From contig DCKD01000044.1 in the NCBI GenBank assembly GCA_002320245.1, forward strand, positions 5,225 through 69,224: 64,000 bases of DNA, in the 5' to 3' direction. Below are positions 11,100-17,190 of this stretch, piece by piece. The DNA comes from Lachnospiraceae bacterium UBA1683 (GTDB taxonomy: Bacteria > Bacillota > Clostridia > Lachnospirales > Lachnospiraceae). The notes below the pieces were generated by a model. It saw only the letters and a list, made by a program, of their open reading frames with translations, ran no database searches and was not told the DNA's origin. A program made the translations under genes and the position numbers. Each line of letters starts with the position of its first letter. Positions within the stretch are counted from its first letter, which is position 1.

Positions 11100-11303
11100 C
11101 GGACCGAATGTGTCCTTATCCGGTGGGGAAGTTATAGCCCCCGAGGCAAGCCGACGGGGCATCAAACTTGCGGCGCAGCAAGCAGCAGGGTATTTGCCTT
11201 TCGTGGCAGCCGCCAAATGTAAGCAGGCTTGTGCTTGGTCTATTGCTTGTAGGAATAAAGAATGTGGGGTGGAAACAGCGTGAGAAAAAACGGAAAGAAT
11301 AAC

Positions 11304-12518
11304 ATGGAAACTCGTGTTAAAGATAATGAAAAAACAAGTATAAAAAGCAGTGTGAAAAAAAATGCAAAAGCCAGACAGGCATGTAACATTTCAAAAAAAT
11401 GCGGGAGCTGTCAGTATCAGGGGATTTCTTATGCGGAGCAGCTAAGAAAAAAGCAGCATCAGGAGGAGACGCTTCTCGGGACATTTGGTAAAGTAAATCC
11501 GATTATCGGTATGGAGAATCCATATTATTATCGAAATAAAGTGCACGCGGTTTTTGGATGTGACCGCCGCGGCAATGCAATATCCGGCACATACGAAGCG
11601 AACAGCCACCGTGTTGTATCGGTAGAGAACTGTCTGATTGAGGATGCAAAAAGTCAGGAAATTATCCATACAATCCGCGGAATGCTGAAGTCATTTAAAA
11701 TCAAAACCTATGATGAAGACACCGGATACGGGCTGCTGCGGCATATTCTGGTCCGAAGAGGATTTAAAAGCGGAGAGATTATGGTGATACTGGTACTTGG
11801 TTCACTAATTCTTCCGTCCAAAAATAATTTTGTGAAGGCATTGCGAAAAGCTCATCCGGAGATTACAACAGTTGTACTAAATGTAAATGACAAAAGAACA
11901 AGCGTGGTACTTGGGGAAAAGGAAAAAACGATTTATGGACCTGGGTTCATTCGGGATGAATTATGCGGCTGTACATTTCGCATTTCCCCGAAATCGTTCT
12001 ATCAGGTAAATCCTGTCCAGACAGAAAAACTTTACGGTACGGCAATCACATTTGCCGGATTGAGCGGCAAAGAAACTATCATCGATGCTTACTGCGGAAT
12101 CGGAACCGTCAGCCTGATTGCGGCAAAACATGTGAAAAAAGTCATCGGTGTGGAGCTGAACAGGGATGCAGTCCGGGACGCCCGGACAAATGCAAAAGAA
12201 AACCGGATAACCAATGCAGAATTCTACCAGGGAGATGCGGGAGATTTCATGGTAGCAATGGCAGAAAAGGAACAGCGTGCAGATGTTGTATTTATGGATC
12301 CGCCACGTTCCGGAAGTGATGAAAGGTTTCTCTCCTCAGTCGTGAAATTAGGCTCCCCAAAAGTTGTGTATATTTCTTGCGGACCGGATACGCTTGCACG
12401 GGATTTGAAGTACCTGACGAAATACGGATATCAGGTGGAGAAAATACAGCCGGTGGATATGTTTCCGTTTTGCGACCATGTTGAGAGTGTCGTGTTGATG
12501 TCAAAAGTCGAGAAGTAG
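11304..12518 (+). CDS. 23S rRNA (uracil-5-)-methyltransferase, RumA/RlmCD family
   Basis: N-terminal Cys cluster (CGSCQYQ...ENC), SAM motif DAYCGIGT, and catalytic-region motifs DPPRSG and YISCGPDTLARD. The start is uncertain (11262 or 11304). Confidence 0.88.
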   Translation: METRVKDNEKTSIKSSVKKNAKARQACNISKKCGSCQYQGISYAEQLRKKQHQEETLLGTFGKVNPIIGMENPYYYRNKVHAVFGCDRRGNAISGTYEANSHRVVSVENCLIEDAKSQEIIHTIRGMLKSFKIKTYDEDTGYGLLRHILVRRGFKSGEIMVILVLGSLILPSKNNFVKALRKAHPEITTVVLNVNDKRTSVVLGEKEKTIYGPGFIRDELCGCTFRISPKSFYQVNPVQTEKLYGTAITFAGLSGKETIIDAYCGIGTVSLIAAKHVKKVIGVELNRDAVRDARTNAKENRITNAEFYQGDAGDFMVAMAEKEQRADVVFMDPPRSGSDERFLSSVVKLGSPKVVYISCGPDTLARDLKYLTKYGYQVEKIQPVDMFPFCDHVESVVLMSKVEK

Positions 12519-12738
12519 ATGTACGGAAAAGGCTTGAAAACAAGGGATTTCCGAGGTGGAGCAGATTTTGGACACAGGGCAACACGACCGGGAAATAAGA
12601 AGTTTGCTGTCAGCGGAAACATATCTACATGAAAAAATGACGGAGGGTTGAGTTGACAGCTTGTAAAATGGGTAGGTTGAGTGGATAGGTTGGATATTTG
12701 CAGGTCGAGTTGACAAGATTGATAATTTGATGAGAAAC

Positions 12739-12770
12739 GGCACCTTGTAGTGATATGAGGTGCCATTTTT
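12739..12770 (+). terminator. rho-independent terminator (GGCACCT-12 nt-AGGTGCC + T-run)
   Basis: 7-bp GC-rich stem followed by ATTTTT, about 220 nt after the methyltransferase stop. Confidence 0.6.
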
Positions 12771-12819
12771 ATGAGAGAAGATAAAGATAGAGAGGCAATC
12801 CAAGTGTAAAAGAGAATAG

Positions 12820-13374
12820 ATGTCCGGAGATCTTGCCCCGCTATTCGGAAGAAATCTGGACGGTGGGAAAGTTAGTTTGTGGATATCAGAGTTGACCTAT
12901 TTATATAGTGGTGAGAATTGCTGGAAGAAGTCTTTTCCATATGATATACTGGCAATGAGAGCAAAGGGATTAGTAAAAATTGCTATAGATGTTGTCTTTG
13001 ATTATCTCGAAGGTAAGGTTAAAGACTTTCCAGAAATAATAGAACAACTACGAAATAGTCCAGAAGCAGAGCAGAAAGTAGCCTCTTTATGGTCTGAATA
13101 TCTCTTTGAGAAAGGTCTCGTGTCAATAGGCTATAATGGTTTGTCAGATAAGCTTCTGATTTCTAATTTCCATCAGGAGGGATATTTAGATGGACTATAT
13201 GCAGGCTATGCCCTTGCGATGATGGCTATGGTAGACAACGATGCTCCCAAGGATATAATCCTTGCTGCAAGAGATTATATTCGTTCCAATTTAATAGACC
13301 ATCATTATGATGACAAAGATGAATTTATCGATTGGTATAAGGATGAGAAATATAGCTGGATTGATAAAACATGA
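12820..13374 (+). CDS. hypothetical protein (island gene A, 184 aa)
   Basis: Open frame in the AT-rich block. There is no convincing RBS at 12820, so the start is uncertain (internal Met at 12955). I recognise no family. Confidence 0.45.
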   Translation: MSGDLAPLFGRNLDGGKVSLWISELTYLYSGENCWKKSFPYDILAMRAKGLVKIAIDVVFDYLEGKVKDFPEIIEQLRNSPEAEQKVASLWSEYLFEKGLVSIGYNGLSDKLLISNFHQEGYLDGLYAGYALAMMAMVDNDAPKDIILAARDYIRSNLIDHHYDDKDEFIDWYKDEKYSWIDKT

Positions 13375-13445
13375 GAACCGTTACAGTTAAAAGTTATGAT
13401 AAAATAAAAATAGCGTATTAAGTACAAAATTACTGAGGAGGAGAA

Positions 13446-15101
13446 GTGATGTTAGACACTAAGCTATTTGCCTTGGATGCATCTTATATTAGAAGAGCTT
13501 TCCAAATGTCAGTAGAGTTGGATGTAAAGAACAGTGTATTTGGCACAGTTAAGTACAATGGAACTGTTATATATAATTGGGCAAAAAATAAATTTGTGGG
13601 TTTACAGATGCCTTCAAATATACATAATTTTTCTAAAAATCGTTCAGGGCAGGAAGTAAATGTCCTTTATAATCCGGAAAAACCCTATTTTTGTATTAAA
13701 GCATCACATCCAGATAAAACAGTTCCTGGGAGATTTTGGACTACCGAAGCAGAGATTCTTGTGAGTAACGGAAAGGTACTGTTGGGGGTAAAATTATCAT
13801 ATTCGACTCCGGTATCACAAGATAAGGAAATGATTGATTATAGTGTGCCTGTTTTTGTATGGAAGATATATAGAAATAATGGTATAGCAGATGTAAGAAG
13901 TCTTAAATCCCATGTATGGCAGATTGATGAGAAAAATATTGATGAGTTGTATGACTTTATACAAAATCGTAATAGAAGAATGCCTGTAGTGGTTATTACA
14001 GAAAGCGTGAATGTTGAAGGAGTAGGAGGACAATATTTAAGTGGTTATCTCGTAAATGGTGAAAGACTTGCTACAAAGGTAGGACTGATAGCTCATGTTG
14101 TATGCTTGGCTGATAATGTATCACAATTGTGGAATGAGAAGGTGGGAAGAAGCTGGGGTGTCTATAATGGAGCAGTGAGGACGTATTTCCCAGGCGCCGA
14201 TTTTAGTGATGAAACATATATGCAACATCCATTATCTGTAGCAAATAGAATTCTTGCGACTCATTATGAGGATGAAAAAGGAAAAGAATATATAGCTGGA
14301 GAAGCATTTGAATATGTTTTGATGAATAATCTAAGAAAGTATAATACTAATGTACACCTAGACTGGGAGAATATTGGCCATAAGTTTTATTTTGCTGCAA
14401 ATCGTGAGGAACTACGTAATAAAGAAAGAACGGTCGAGGATGCTGTATTGTTAAATGAAATGTATGAAGAACAGATACAGCAACTGGAGAAAAAAATTAA
14501 GAATCAGGAAGACGAAATAATTACAGCGATGATTGCGACAGAAAATATAGAGAAGGAACTGGAAGAAAATAGGCAAACGATTTATAGACTCAATATGCGA
14601 GTTGAGTCTTTAACATGTCAATTGGAAAAGTTGCGTGAAGGAAACCAGAGCGATATTCCTATTCTTAATGACTACACACAGTTGGTGGAGTGGGTTGAAA
14701 CGTATTTTCCAGGAAGATTAGTGTTGCACAATAGAGCTATTAGGGCATTAAAAGGGGCAGTGTTTAATGATCCAGAATTGGTTTTCAAAGCATTAAAATT
14801 GCTTGGCACAACTTACTATCAGATGCGTATGGGATATGTATCATTACAGGAATTTACAGATCAGTGCACTGAGCTTGGAATTGAAGAGGCGGGGTCCATT
14901 GCTGATACGGTAGCAGGAGAGTTAGGGGATACATATTTTGTCTCTTATCATGGGAAGAAATGTAAGCTAGAGAGACATTTAAGAAAAGGAAAAGTAAGAG
15001 ATCCTCAGTTTTGTATGAGAATATATTTCTTTTGGTCAGAGGAAGAATCCCAGATAGTTATAGGATCGTTGCCACAGCATTTGACTATAAGTACAAGTTG
15101 A
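13446..15101 (+). CDS. hypothetical protein (island gene B, 551 aa): unknown N-domain + central coiled coil + conserved-looking C-terminal domain
   Basis: Strong RBS GAGGAGGAG before GTGATG. A heptad-rich, E/K/Q-rich segment spans roughly aa 322-400. I recognise no Walker or nuclease motif. Confidence 0.75.
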   Translation: MMLDTKLFALDASYIRRAFQMSVELDVKNSVFGTVKYNGTVIYNWAKNKFVGLQMPSNIHNFSKNRSGQEVNVLYNPEKPYFCIKASHPDKTVPGRFWTTEAEILVSNGKVLLGVKLSYSTPVSQDKEMIDYSVPVFVWKIYRNNGIADVRSLKSHVWQIDEKNIDELYDFIQNRNRRMPVVVITESVNVEGVGGQYLSGYLVNGERLATKVGLIAHVVCLADNVSQLWNEKVGRSWGVYNGAVRTYFPGADFSDETYMQHPLSVANRILATHYEDEKGKEYIAGEAFEYVLMNNLRKYNTNVHLDWENIGHKFYFAANREELRNKERTVEDAVLLNEMYEEQIQQLEKKIKNQEDEIITAMIATENIEKELEENRQTIYRLNMRVESLTCQLEKLREGNQSDIPILNDYTQLVEWVETYFPGRLVLHNRAIRALKGAVFNDPELVFKALKLLGTTYYQMRMGYVSLQEFTDQCTELGIEEAGSIADTVAGELGDTYFVSYHGKKCKLERHLRKGKVRDPQFCMRIYFFWSEEESQIVIGSLPQHLTISTS

Positions 15102-15175
15102 TTTTGGAGAAAATCATGACGGCGATTAGAATTGACACTTATAAGCAACAGGATATGTGGATGTGAGGAGAACGT

Positions 15176-15955
15176 ATGAAATTAAAAAGAGAATGTAATA
15201 CTTGCGAATTTAATTTTGATGGTATTTGTGCAGGTCATGGGGAGGTATATGATTATGGAGAAAAAATAGTTGATGATACAAAGTGCTGTGATGATTGGGG
15301 GGCCAATCTTAAGTATTTTTCGGAAGTCACTGAGAATGCGCCGTGGTATATAAGGAATGATTATAAAATAAGTTTTGGTGAACTTTTGAAACGCATAGAT
15401 GATGATGAGAATGGAATCGCTCTTGAAGTGAATCTATATGATGCGATAGAGAAAATTTACGATTTAAGTTTGGTGGAGTTAGCAGAAGTATTAGGGGTAT
15501 CATTAGGTGTCATTAATTATGCTAAATATCAAGGAACTGTGGCAAAAAGGGCATCGGAATTTTCAGCTAGATTATGTATTCCAATACGTTTTTTTAATCA
15601 TTTTACAACGCACGATTTTGAAGAACTAAAGAGGTGTAAAGAAGAATTTGAGGCTAACGGTGATCCTAAATTATTTAGCGATAAAAAAATGAAATGGAAA
15701 GAAGAAAAACTAATTCCTAGAATTGAAGAATGTTTGGGTTGTACGCATACATCTGCACAAAAATATTATACGATAACACATATTGAGTGGCATAAAAATA
15801 TGGAAATAAGCGAACTAAGTAAAATGGAAAAGGAGTTTATTGAATTTATAATTCGGATTAATAAAAGGAAAGGGTACGAATTGACATCTTTTGAATATCT
15901 GATAGATGGAATTGGTTTTCCAAAGTTGCATTTGAATTATATGAAAAAGAAATAG
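15176..15955 (+). CDS. hypothetical protein (island gene C, 259 aa): N-terminal Cys cluster + putative HTH
   Basis: RBS GAGGAG 5 nt before the ATG. It has CNTCEFNFDGIC...CCDDW, and an HTH-like stretch LSLVELAEVLGVSLGVINYAKYQG. Confidence 0.7.
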   Translation: MKLKRECNTCEFNFDGICAGHGEVYDYGEKIVDDTKCCDDWGANLKYFSEVTENAPWYIRNDYKISFGELLKRIDDDENGIALEVNLYDAIEKIYDLSLVELAEVLGVSLGVINYAKYQGTVAKRASEFSARLCIPIRFFNHFTTHDFEELKRCKEEFEANGDPKLFSDKKMKWKEEKLIPRIEECLGCTHTSAQKYYTITHIEWHKNMEISELSKMEKEFIEFIIRINKRKGYELTSFEYLIDGIGFPKLHLNYMKKK

Positions 15956-15970
15956 AAATACATATCCATC

Positions 15971-16082
15971 GGTGCACCCTCTCACTGGCTTGCGTACCAT
16001 AAATTGATACAATGCACCCTTGGCTGTCAGAGGGTGCATTTTTAACGATTACCCATACTCAAAAAACGATAGGGTGCATTTG
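15971..16082. repeat. repeat A, copy 1 (112 bp; second copy at 28779-28890)
   Basis: Near-identical to 28779-28890. It contains the hairpin AATGCACCCT-10 nt-AGGGTGCATT plus T-run, and four GGGTGCA/TGCACCC words. Confidence 0.9.
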
Positions 16083-16155
16083 CCTCAGATTTATGGTATT
16101 CTATGGTAAAACACAGCGATAAAATATGATCTTCTTGAAAGGTGAGGTATTGAAT

Positions 16156-16635
16156 ATGAGTAAGGTATTAGTAGCGTATTTCAGTGCCAGCGGCGTAACA
16201 GCGAAACTGGCGAAGCGGCTTGCAGAGGCTATCGGAGCAGATTTACATGAAATTCAGCCGGAGGTTCCATACACGGATGCTGATCTGGATTGGATGGATA
16301 AAAAGAGCCGCAGCAGTGTGGAAATGAATGATAAGTTATTCCGGCCTGCTGTTGCAAACAAAGTGGAGAACATGGAGCAGTATTCAGTGATTTTCACAGC
16401 CTTCCCTATCTGGTGGTACGTTGCCCCGACTATTGTGAACACGTTTTTGGAGCAATACGATCTGACTGGAAAGACGATTATTCCGCTGGCAACTTCTGGA
16501 AGCAGTGGCATGGGGAACACAAACAAGGAACTGGCGGTTTCCTGTCCGGGAGCAGAATTAAAGGAAGGAAAGAGATTCTCTGCGAATGTAAGTGCGGAAG
16601 AACTGAAAGCATGGGCAGAAGGATTCGGGATTTAA
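16156..16635 (+). CDS. flavodoxin
   Basis: MSKVLVAYFSASGVT... and FPIWWYVAP are short-chain flavodoxin signatures. An AAAGGTGAGG RBS precedes the ATG. Confidence 0.85.
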   Translation: MSKVLVAYFSASGVTAKLAKRLAEAIGADLHEIQPEVPYTDADLDWMDKKSRSSVEMNDKLFRPAVANKVENMEQYSVIFTAFPIWWYVAPTIVNTFLEQYDLTGKTIIPLATSGSSGMGNTNKELAVSCPGAELKEGKRFSANVSAEELKAWAEGFGI

Positions 16636-16655
16636 GATACATAAAAAAGACCGAT

Positions 16656-17190
16656 AAACTTATCAATATAGACCCATAAAGTTATCTTTCATGACAACGA
16701 ATAATAAGAAATCTATGGTAACATCCTACCCGTAGTGGTAAATTATTCTACAGGAAAGGGTGCGAAGCATGGAAAATGAAGTATATGAAAAAGATTATGG
16801 AGAGGAATTCCGGGAGCGAAGCAATAAGGCAGAAGGAAAGGATTTTTTAGACACATTGATGGATGTTGGATTCTTCCAGGCGTATAAAGAAGAAATGGAC
16901 AAAATCCCAAAGCGTGTGGTTCCCAAAGAAAAAGCGGATTATGAATACTTGCTTGGAGAGTGTGACGCTTACGTCCGACAGTTCGGTGGAAGAATACGGG
17001 GCGAGGTAGATTACCAGAAATGGCAGGCTACCATTGATCTGTACCTGGAACATTTTGAGTTCTGTGACCGGGAGGCACTGACATTGCTGAAGGAGATCGC
17101 AGAGCGGGCGGAGAATGTGACGTTTTCGATGAAAGATGGGTTGCTTCGGATGTCGGTGTTCATTGGATATTTTGATGAAGTGTATTAAAA
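16656..17190. repeat. repeat B, copy 1 (about 535 bp; second copy at 29544-30078)
   Basis: Aligned by eye at above 90% identity. It includes a 113-nt leader and the whole 139-aa ORF. Confidence 0.9.
16769..17188 (+). CDS. hypothetical protein (139 aa), paralog of 29657-30076
   Basis: MENEVYEKDYGEEFRERS...; about 5 aa differ from the second copy. I recognise no family. Confidence 0.7.
   Translation: MENEVYEKDYGEEFRERSNKAEGKDFLDTLMDVGFFQAYKEEMDKIPKRVVPKEKADYEYLLGECDAYVRQFGGRIRGEVDYQKWQATIDLYLEHFEFCDREALTLLKEIAERAENVTFSMKDGLLRMSVFIGYFDEVY

Follow-up and report, generated by a model that had tools for sequence, protein, structure and literature searches.

HEC-07 ("Hma-embedded candidate 07") is an anti-phage protein described by Payne, Hughes, Fineran and Jackson (bioRxiv 10.1101/2024.01.29.577857) and represented in PADLOC by the models PDLC04158-04161. 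In that preprint, its N-terminal domain is called AdoMetDC-like, its second domain is called thioredoxin-like without CxxC, and its C-terminus, with a conserved H543, is likened structurally to HP0892, a toxin of the RelE family from Helicobacter pylori. In Escherichia coli, seven candidates, HEC-07 among them, lowered plaquing efficiency by orders of magnitude for two or more phages; only HEC-01 and HEC-09 gave no protection. It is listed as a single protein, the two-gene label being given to HEC-02 and HEC-03 only. In this study, a stretch of 64,000 nucleotides of contig DCKD01000044.1 from Lachnospiraceae bacterium UBA1683 (the window) was analysed, and we found at 13449..15101 on its plus strand a gene that, with high confidence, encodes a HEC-07 defence protein. 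The gene is a further member of an already described and experimentally supported family and can be annotated automatically by PADLOC.

A second described system that concerns this locus is Menshen, of which NsnC is the effector (PMC12065111). The C-termini of NsnC are polymorphic. The archetypal and commonest one, PB-BECR1, is a domain of the Barnase/EndoU/Colicin/RelE (BECR) superfamily regarded as a YafQ-like ribonuclease (RNase); its closest structure is YafQ, the H-D-H of which corresponds to an H-R-H triad in PB-BECR1 (PMC12065111). We found that HEC-07 and NsnC are related in sequence at their C-terminal ends. This link is absent from the searchable text of both papers, and PB-BECR1 is mentioned in no other searchable paper besides PMC12065111. 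What is added here to the description of HEC-07 is modest: the link to NsnC and PB-BECR1, the portable C-terminal module, the invariant site in domain 2, and an apparent hotspot adjacent to a methyltransferase gene.

The window protein matched PDLC04161 from end to end (E = 1.1e-97; residues 15-549 against positions 21-551 of a profile of 553), and the other three HEC-07 models of PADLOC also matched it (E = 1e-62 to 6e-42). The initial annotation of this locus, made from the sequence alone, had described a globular N-terminal part, a long coiled coil and a RelE/HigB/Gp49-like C-terminus, and had stated that such a layout was not known from any described system. The architecture was right but the novelty was wrong, because a RelE-like C-terminus and activity against phages had already been reported for HEC-07. 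Calling the N-terminal part "unknown" was fair with respect to general-purpose libraries: searches of Pfam, NCBIfam and PHROGs with the three proteins of the local islet (gene A, HEC-07 and gene C) gave only coiled-coil noise at residues ~320-400 of HEC-07. An unnamed open reading frame for 550 residues without a Pfam or NCBIfam match is now annotated as a HEC-07 anti-phage gene on a small, probably mobile islet, with unrelated cargo as its neighbours.

Compared with the HEC-07 of Payne et al., the window protein is alike in its full-length hidden Markov model match, in its architecture of ~550 residues, in its C-terminal histidine (H544, equivalent to H543 of the reference protein), in its single-gene autonomy and in having homologues within or beside other defence systems. 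In AlphaFold2 models it has two N-terminal globular domains followed by a RelE-like C-terminal domain, as described for HEC-07. The window copy differs in being in a Firmicute (Lachnospiraceae) and in lying outside Hma, on a small islet of low guanine-plus-cytosine (GC) content 3' of an RNA U5-methyltransferase gene.

The open reading frame is uninterrupted at 13446..15101 on the plus strand and has 551 codons counted from GTG 13446, the start initially assigned. A strong Shine-Dalgarno sequence, GAGGAGGAG, is read at 13435..13443 (+), with a spacing of 5 nt to ATG 13449 and of 2 nt to GTG 13446, and all close homologues are 550 residues long. Because of this spacing and this length, ATG 13449 is most likely the true start, giving 550 residues plus stop, and GTG 13446 is less likely. 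Residue numbers in this text are counted from ATG 13449.

HEC-07 is widespread, with more than 1,000 clusters at 50% identity. A word-indexed search gave 37 relatives of the window protein. When 1.84 billion cluster representatives (50%-identity clusters) were searched exhaustively with a profile, 6,256 relatives reached E <= 0.001, of which 1,298 reached the stricter E <= 1e-30. Of the 150 relatives listed from this search, nearly all are ~550 residues long and match end to end. No HEC-07 homologue was found in the phage genomes searched. Conservation was computed over 173 diverse members with a median identity of 29% to the window protein. In the N-terminal half, R176 and R244 are each conserved in 100% of these members, H260 in 98%, Y246 in 96%, D89 in 95% and R95 in 91%. 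In the C-terminal domain, Y526 and H544 are each conserved in 100%, Y496 and H510 each in 98%, and R524 in 80%. The ending motif pointed out initially, KLERHLRKGKVRDPQFCMRIYFFWSEEESQIVIGSLPQHL, in which CMRIYFF begins at nt 15012, is thus real and far from chance. It belongs to a catalytic-type block, KLERH(510)LRKG...MR(524)IY(526)FFW...LPQH(544)L, at 14964..15083 (+), which contains an H-R-H triad and a tyrosine.

The full-length AlphaFold2 model has a mean pLDDT (predicted local distance difference test) score of 86.4 and a predicted template modelling (pTM) score of 0.58, so that the relative placement of its domains is uncertain. Residues 1-~310 are globular and form two domains, in agreement with the globular part of ~320 residues proposed initially. 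Domain 1 (residues 1-~125; 13449..13823, +) consists of an antiparallel sheet and a long helix and carries the conserved W44, D89, R95 and W97. Domain 2 (residues ~130-310; 13836..14378, +) is an alpha/beta domain that carries R176, R244, Y246 and H260 and may be a ligand-binding or sensing site. A helical linker and coiled coil follow at residues 313-396 (14385..14636, +), with helices at 313-328 and 332-396. The second helix is continuous over 65 residues and keeps one unbroken heptad register, its a/d positions being 79% hydrophobic against 38% overall; the uninterrupted heptad segment read initially from the sequence was therefore borne out. The AdoMetDC-like call for domain 1 was not reproduced by our fold search: the full-length model gave only weak Bet v 1/START-like matches in the PDB (E ~2e-3; template modelling (TM) score to the target <= 0.43), and neither spermine synthase nor thioredoxin was among the best 50. 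For the C-terminus this full-length search was uninformative. Pfam, NCBIfam and the PDB fold search gave no enzyme family match for the N-terminal half.

A separate AlphaFold2 model of residues 400-550 (pLDDT 92.3, pTM 0.88) showed a compact domain at residues ~405-550 (14661..15098, +), close to the ~150 residues expected initially. When this model was compared with the PDB by Foldseek, 35 of the 50 best matches were RelE/ParE-superfamily toxins, namely RelE from four organisms (including E. coli), YoeB, HigB, HigB2, PfiT, ParE and HP0892. The enrichment has P ~4e-53, supposing that 5,000 of the 350,542 library chains belong to the superfamily. TM scores to the target were 0.38-0.58, with 0.58 for RelE of Pyrococcus horikoshii (1wmi_A) and 0.49 for HP0892, and the best match was RelE2 of Mycobacterium tuberculosis (3g5o_B, E = 0.044). 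Modelled apart from the N-terminus, as the initial annotation had advised, the C-terminus thus has a RelE/ParE-type fold, built of an N-terminal strand, a helical hairpin and an antiparallel sheet, with a helical insertion, and not an unrelated fold; no single Foldseek match was significant. Type II toxins of the superfamily (RelE, YoeB, YafQ, HigB and HP0892) are the closest solved folds, and in YoeB, YafQ and HP0892, as in HEC-07, the beta-sheet bears basic and aromatic residues of catalytic type and the C-terminus a histidine. HEC-07 differs from these toxins in several respects. Its domain has no detectable sequence similarity to them, is ~145 residues long because of the helical insertion whereas the toxins have ~90 (~85-95), and is fused to an N-terminal region of ~400 residues. 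Moreover, HEC-07 has no adjacent antitoxin gene, and no neighbour is conserved across the family.

The last ~65-70 residues of HEC-07 are related in sequence to NsnC. With the NsnC model PDLC03912, matches were obtained for 17 of 34 diverse HEC-07 C-termini (best E = 1.9e-6); all were in register with the C-terminal end of NsnC and lay within profile positions ~210-316. A stronger match came from a homologue on a Klebsiella plasmid, the last ~70 residues of which matched NsnC models with E = 5e-13 in the full-length protein and E = 1.6e-14 as an isolated segment. The last 61 residues of the window protein matched three NsnC models weakly (E = 0.013-0.044) and in register, and NsnC was the only match of this segment outside HEC-07. 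H510, R524 and H544 are a set like the H-R-H triad reported for PB-BECR1, and both proteins are predicted RNase effectors of defence systems. The two differ elsewhere: NsnC has an inactive PIN domain at its N-terminus and works with NsnA (ParB-DUF262) and NsnB (an ABC ATPase), whereas HEC-07 has its own N-terminal domains and coiled coil and lacks both partners. A PADLOC search of the window neighbour genes gave no match to NsnA or NsnB. HEC-07 therefore shares a domain with NsnC and is not a component of Menshen. This relation suggests that one RNase module is shared by otherwise unrelated defence systems.

The Klebsiella homologue is a divergent HEC-07 of 529 residues with 23% identity to the window protein, encoded at 5818-7407 of L029 (Klebsiella variicola plasmid p2_020019). 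It is found on ~110-kb IncFIB plasmids beside genes for a recombinase, a 5'-3' exonuclease and dnaE; the backbone of these plasmids looks like that of a phage-plasmid.

Further proteins that end in the same module were met while genuine NsnC sequences were sought among the plasmid matches. A protein of 978 residues with an N-terminal helix-turn-helix (HTH), annotated as hypothetical, is encoded on more than 130 Pseudomonas megaplasmids (for example at 3286-6222 of L030, P. aeruginosa plasmid pZPPH29-KPC). Its match to the HEC-07 profile sets in at the coiled coil (positions 341-549), and it also matches the NsnC C-terminus. A protein of 720 residues at 4066-6228 of L031 (Vibrio plasmid pSEA2) likewise ends in a coiled coil and a BECR-like module. 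When the copies from the window, Klebsiella, Pseudomonas and Vibrio and an Hma-type copy are aligned, H510 and H544 are invariant and R524 is present in four of five. Since the module occurs on unrelated N-termini with H510 and H544 kept, these proteins support the idea that the coiled coil and the C-terminal domain are an output module placed on interchangeable N-terminal regions. Tentatively, a bolder proposal, less likely than not, may be made: the coiled coil and BECR RNase-like domain would be a portable effector cassette of HEC-07, NsnC and at least two plasmid proteins, and in HEC-07 an antitoxin-free RelE-type RNase would be held off in cis by the N-terminal domain pair, the invariant Arg/Arg/His site of which would bind a small-molecule or nucleic-acid cue. 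If so, HEC-07 would be the RNase counterpart of CapRel in logic.

These data are best explained, in our judgement probably correctly, if HEC-07 is a self-contained single-polypeptide anti-phage protein carried on the islet and working by a sensor, a coiled coil and an RNase. The two N-terminal globular domains would be the infection sensor or regulatory unit, with R176, R244 and H260 in domain 2. By forming a coiled coil, the heptad helix of 65 residues would both oligomerise the protein and link its sensor with its effector. This effector, the C-terminal RelE/ParE-fold (BECR) domain, would be an RNase acting through the H510-R524-H544 triad and Y526, a residue set compatible with cleavage of mRNA, whether ribosome-dependent or free. 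Before infection the RNase may be held inactive in cis, in which case no antitoxin gene would be needed. Infection would free the RNase, and cleavage of RNA, either mRNA on the ribosome as by RelE, YoeB and YafQ or free RNA, would stop translation and abort phage production. Taken by itself, the RNase and abortive mechanism seems to us somewhat more plausible than its contrary. A RelE-fold RNase controlled in cis without an antitoxin would add to the ways in which toxin domains serve immunity. The protein offers as targets the putative H510/R524/Y526/H544 set, the R176/R244/H260 site of domain 2 and the heptad helix between them.

Single-chain defence proteins of comparable logic exist. CapRel, which was reportedly presented by Zhang et al. 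in Nature in 2022, is said to be a fused toxin-antitoxin defence protein, the toxin of which is an N-terminal tRNA-pyrophosphorylating RelA/SpoT-like enzyme. Like HEC-07 it is a single polypeptide without a separate antitoxin, in which the remainder of the chain presumably keeps the toxin inactive until a phage cue frees it. However, CapRel has no coiled coil, and the likeness is an analogy of mechanism, not homology. The anticodon nucleases PrrC and RloC are single-chain defence proteins with a regulatory N-terminal ABC ATPase and a C-terminal RNase that is not of the RelE fold. HEC-07 resembles them in having one chain with a regulatory N-terminus and a C-terminal RNase (both putative in HEC-07), and resembles RloC also in its long coiled coil, but Pfam, NCBIfam and PADLOC scans gave no ATPase motifs in HEC-07.

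Several points weigh against a cis-controlled RNase in HEC-07. In the comparison of the C-terminal model with the PDB, no match reached E <= 0.001. A phmmer search and two profile searches against PDB sequences gave no RelE-type toxin and only spurious helical-repeat matches (IFRD2, kinesin light chain). A Pfam scan of 20 C-termini showed no enrichment of the RelE clan, with a single noise match to Gp49 (E = 0.19), and a scan of 34 diverse C-termini gave no RelE-clan match. In a profile-profile comparison of the kind advised initially, hhalign against a YoeB alignment gave a probability of 2.3%; the YoeB profile was narrow (effective number of sequences 1.4), because its homology search gave only sequences at least 82% identical. 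R524 is replaced by alanine or glycine in ~20% of the family. Conservation of the N-terminal half is as strong as that of the C-terminus, so this half could be catalytic and not a sensor. There is no recognisable defence system around HEC-07 in the window. As for the related systems, the matched PADLOC NsnC models may be of another type than PB-BECR1, and RNase activity of NsnC itself is just predicted (PMC12065111). Point mutants of HEC-07 and an RNase assay are absent from the text of the preprint (bioRxiv 10.1101/2024.01.29.577857).

The negative sequence tests, to which the window protein itself adds no match to any RelE-clan Pfam family (ParE_toxin, Gp49, HigB, YafQ, YoeB and others), may be taken to mean that the C-terminus is an unrelated domain, the small alpha/beta fold of which looks like RelE by coincidence. 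The insignificance of each single Foldseek E-value and a search of a viral structure library with the C-terminal domain, which gave nothing, are in line with this idea. It is extremely unlikely in view of the 35 of the 50 best matches among 350,542 chains that fall in one superfamily (P < 1e-50) and of the independent structural assignment to HP0892 (bioRxiv 10.1101/2024.01.29.577857). Because all sequence tests against RelE-type toxins were negative and the fold matches were positive, the resemblance is one of fold and residue pattern and not one of detectable sequence homology to RelE, Gp49 or HigB. The RelE/HigB/Gp49 likeness proposed initially therefore stands for the fold but not at the sequence level, and the view that a coiled coil tethers a toxin-type fold to a larger N-terminal part is upheld by the fold neighbours, the NsnC relation and the published description of HEC-07.

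A domain of this fold need not cleave RNA. It might be ParE-like or otherwise non-nucleolytic, such as a gyrase poison or a protein-binding fold, and PfiT (9w3a), YoeB/ParE (6n90) and ParDE (6x0a) are indeed among the fold matches beside the RNases; the lack of an RNase assay for HEC-07 also leaves room for it. However, to our knowledge ParE toxins have no conserved His/Arg catalytic set, whereas H510 and H544 are present in at least 98% of the HEC-07 family. In addition, the sole relative detectable by sequence, the NsnC C-terminus, is structurally closest to YafQ and carries the H-R-H triad. A ParE-like or non-nucleolytic domain is thus, in our opinion, very improbable.

RelE and YoeB bind the ribosomal A site. 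The RelE-like domain of HEC-07 might accordingly serve in non-catalytic targeting or sensing, for example by binding the ribosome or RNA, while the N-terminal half would be the enzymatic effector. The near-invariant polar residues of that half (D89, R95, R176, R244, Y246 and H260) fit such a role, and its domains have been likened to the enzyme folds AdoMetDC and thioredoxin (bioRxiv 10.1101/2024.01.29.577857). Yet the C-terminal H/R/Y/H set is equally invariant and is placed like the catalytic residues of BECR RNases, and the C-terminal module occurs on unrelated N-termini and in NsnC, as a shared output module might. CxxC is missing from the thioredoxin-like domain, and the N-terminal half matched no enzyme family. 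An N-terminal effector is therefore unlikely, and we retain the C-terminal RNase as the preferred reading.

HEC-07 lies between two genes in the window. Gene A (184 residues; 12820..13374, +) had no match in Pfam, NCBIfam, PADLOC or PHROGs. Gene C (259 residues; 15176..15955, +), which the initial annotation had treated as a possible partner, is rich in Cys at its N-terminus (CNTC...C...CC) and gave a weak HTH signal. One might suppose that the functional unit is this three-gene islet, with gene A or gene C as an antitoxin, regulator or co-sensor. All three genes point the same way, with gaps of 74 nt and nothing like a terminator between them, the trio is intact on many contigs of the lineage, and a copy of gene C with 79% identity stands 3' of the closest HEC-07 relative (P0002). 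The HTH signal of gene C would also suit a regulator. The distribution of the genes argues otherwise. The trio is fixed in this lineage only. Gene A is present in L026-L028, and tblastn did not find it at any other HEC-07 locus. Gene C is found beside P0002 only and is absent from the P0003, P0007, P0012, P0018, P0027 and P0028 loci; the HEC-07 of P0003 is 87% identical to that of the window. Conversely, the gene C family (22 clusters) occurs without HEC-07 in L022-L025, for example after a prophage lysis cassette. A conserved partner gene was rejected, the genes 3' of HEC-07 in other contexts being unrelated to each other and to gene C. The P0012 homologue stands alone, with housekeeping genes on both sides, and HEC-07 is listed as a single protein (bioRxiv 10.1101/2024.01.29.577857). 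Since the neighbours vary and gene C is found without HEC-07, HEC-07 is autonomous with no obligate partner, and gene C is not a credible antitoxin but an independent mobile gene; gene A is not part of the HEC-07 system. A three-gene functional unit is accordingly highly unlikely.

The neighbour genes of HEC-07 differ in all seven contexts compared, and these contexts are varied and mostly defence-rich. One homologue lies 3' of a type I restriction-modification operon together with AbiJ/kinase and DUF1016 genes. Another adjoins DUF1156 and HEPN-DUF499 genes, a locus that, judged from its Pfam domains, looks like an Hma system. A third is on an integrase-bearing element, and a fourth is near AIPR and PIN genes. 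Others follow the same kind of methyltransferase gene as in the window, with other cargo.

A variable hotspot of defence genes appears to exist, in related genomes, directly 3' of the TRAM/U5 RNA methyltransferase gene (window 11262-12518 and downstream). At this site L009 has HEC-07 with genes for proteins of 1017 and 784 residues, the latter with a faint AAA_22 match, and L017 has GmrSD-HNH, DUF1016 and HEC-07.

Gene A, HEC-07 and gene C occupy a low-GC islet at 12750..16000, seen in the composition profile. Its GC content is 32-38% against 44-48% in the flanks, and it is bounded by the RNA U5-methyltransferase gene upstream and a flavodoxin gene downstream. A small, horizontally acquired islet that carries HEC-07 is a likely part of the best explanation. 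A scan for promoters and terminators stayed at shuffle expectation except for one terminator-like hairpin (12739-12764), which closes the upstream methyltransferase gene. Direct repeats or attachment (att) sites flanking the islet were also sought, and just short, imperfect repeats at chance level were seen.

A block of 4.8 kb (window 12359-17188) is 98.7% identical on two metagenome contigs, L026 and L028, the flanks of which are unlike those of the window. Besides gene A, HEC-07 and gene C, the block takes in the 3' end of the U5 RNA methyltransferase gene, the flavodoxin gene (16126-16635) and an open reading frame for 142 residues (16760-17188). Because the exchanged block exceeds the low-GC islet and ends within a conserved gene, transfer of the islet region by homologous recombination is suggested. 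The HEC-07 copy of L028 (4276-5991), otherwise 99% identical, is frameshifted after residue 534 and has 571 residues as called. The frameshift puts out-of-frame sequence in place of the last beta-strand and the invariant H544; it stems either from an error of assembly or from natural inactivation of the putative catalytic end.

The few gene C family members with an organism name come from Clostridia (Hungatella, Fusibacter). The Hungatella copy lies directly 3' of a prophage holin/amidase lysis cassette, like a prophage moron.

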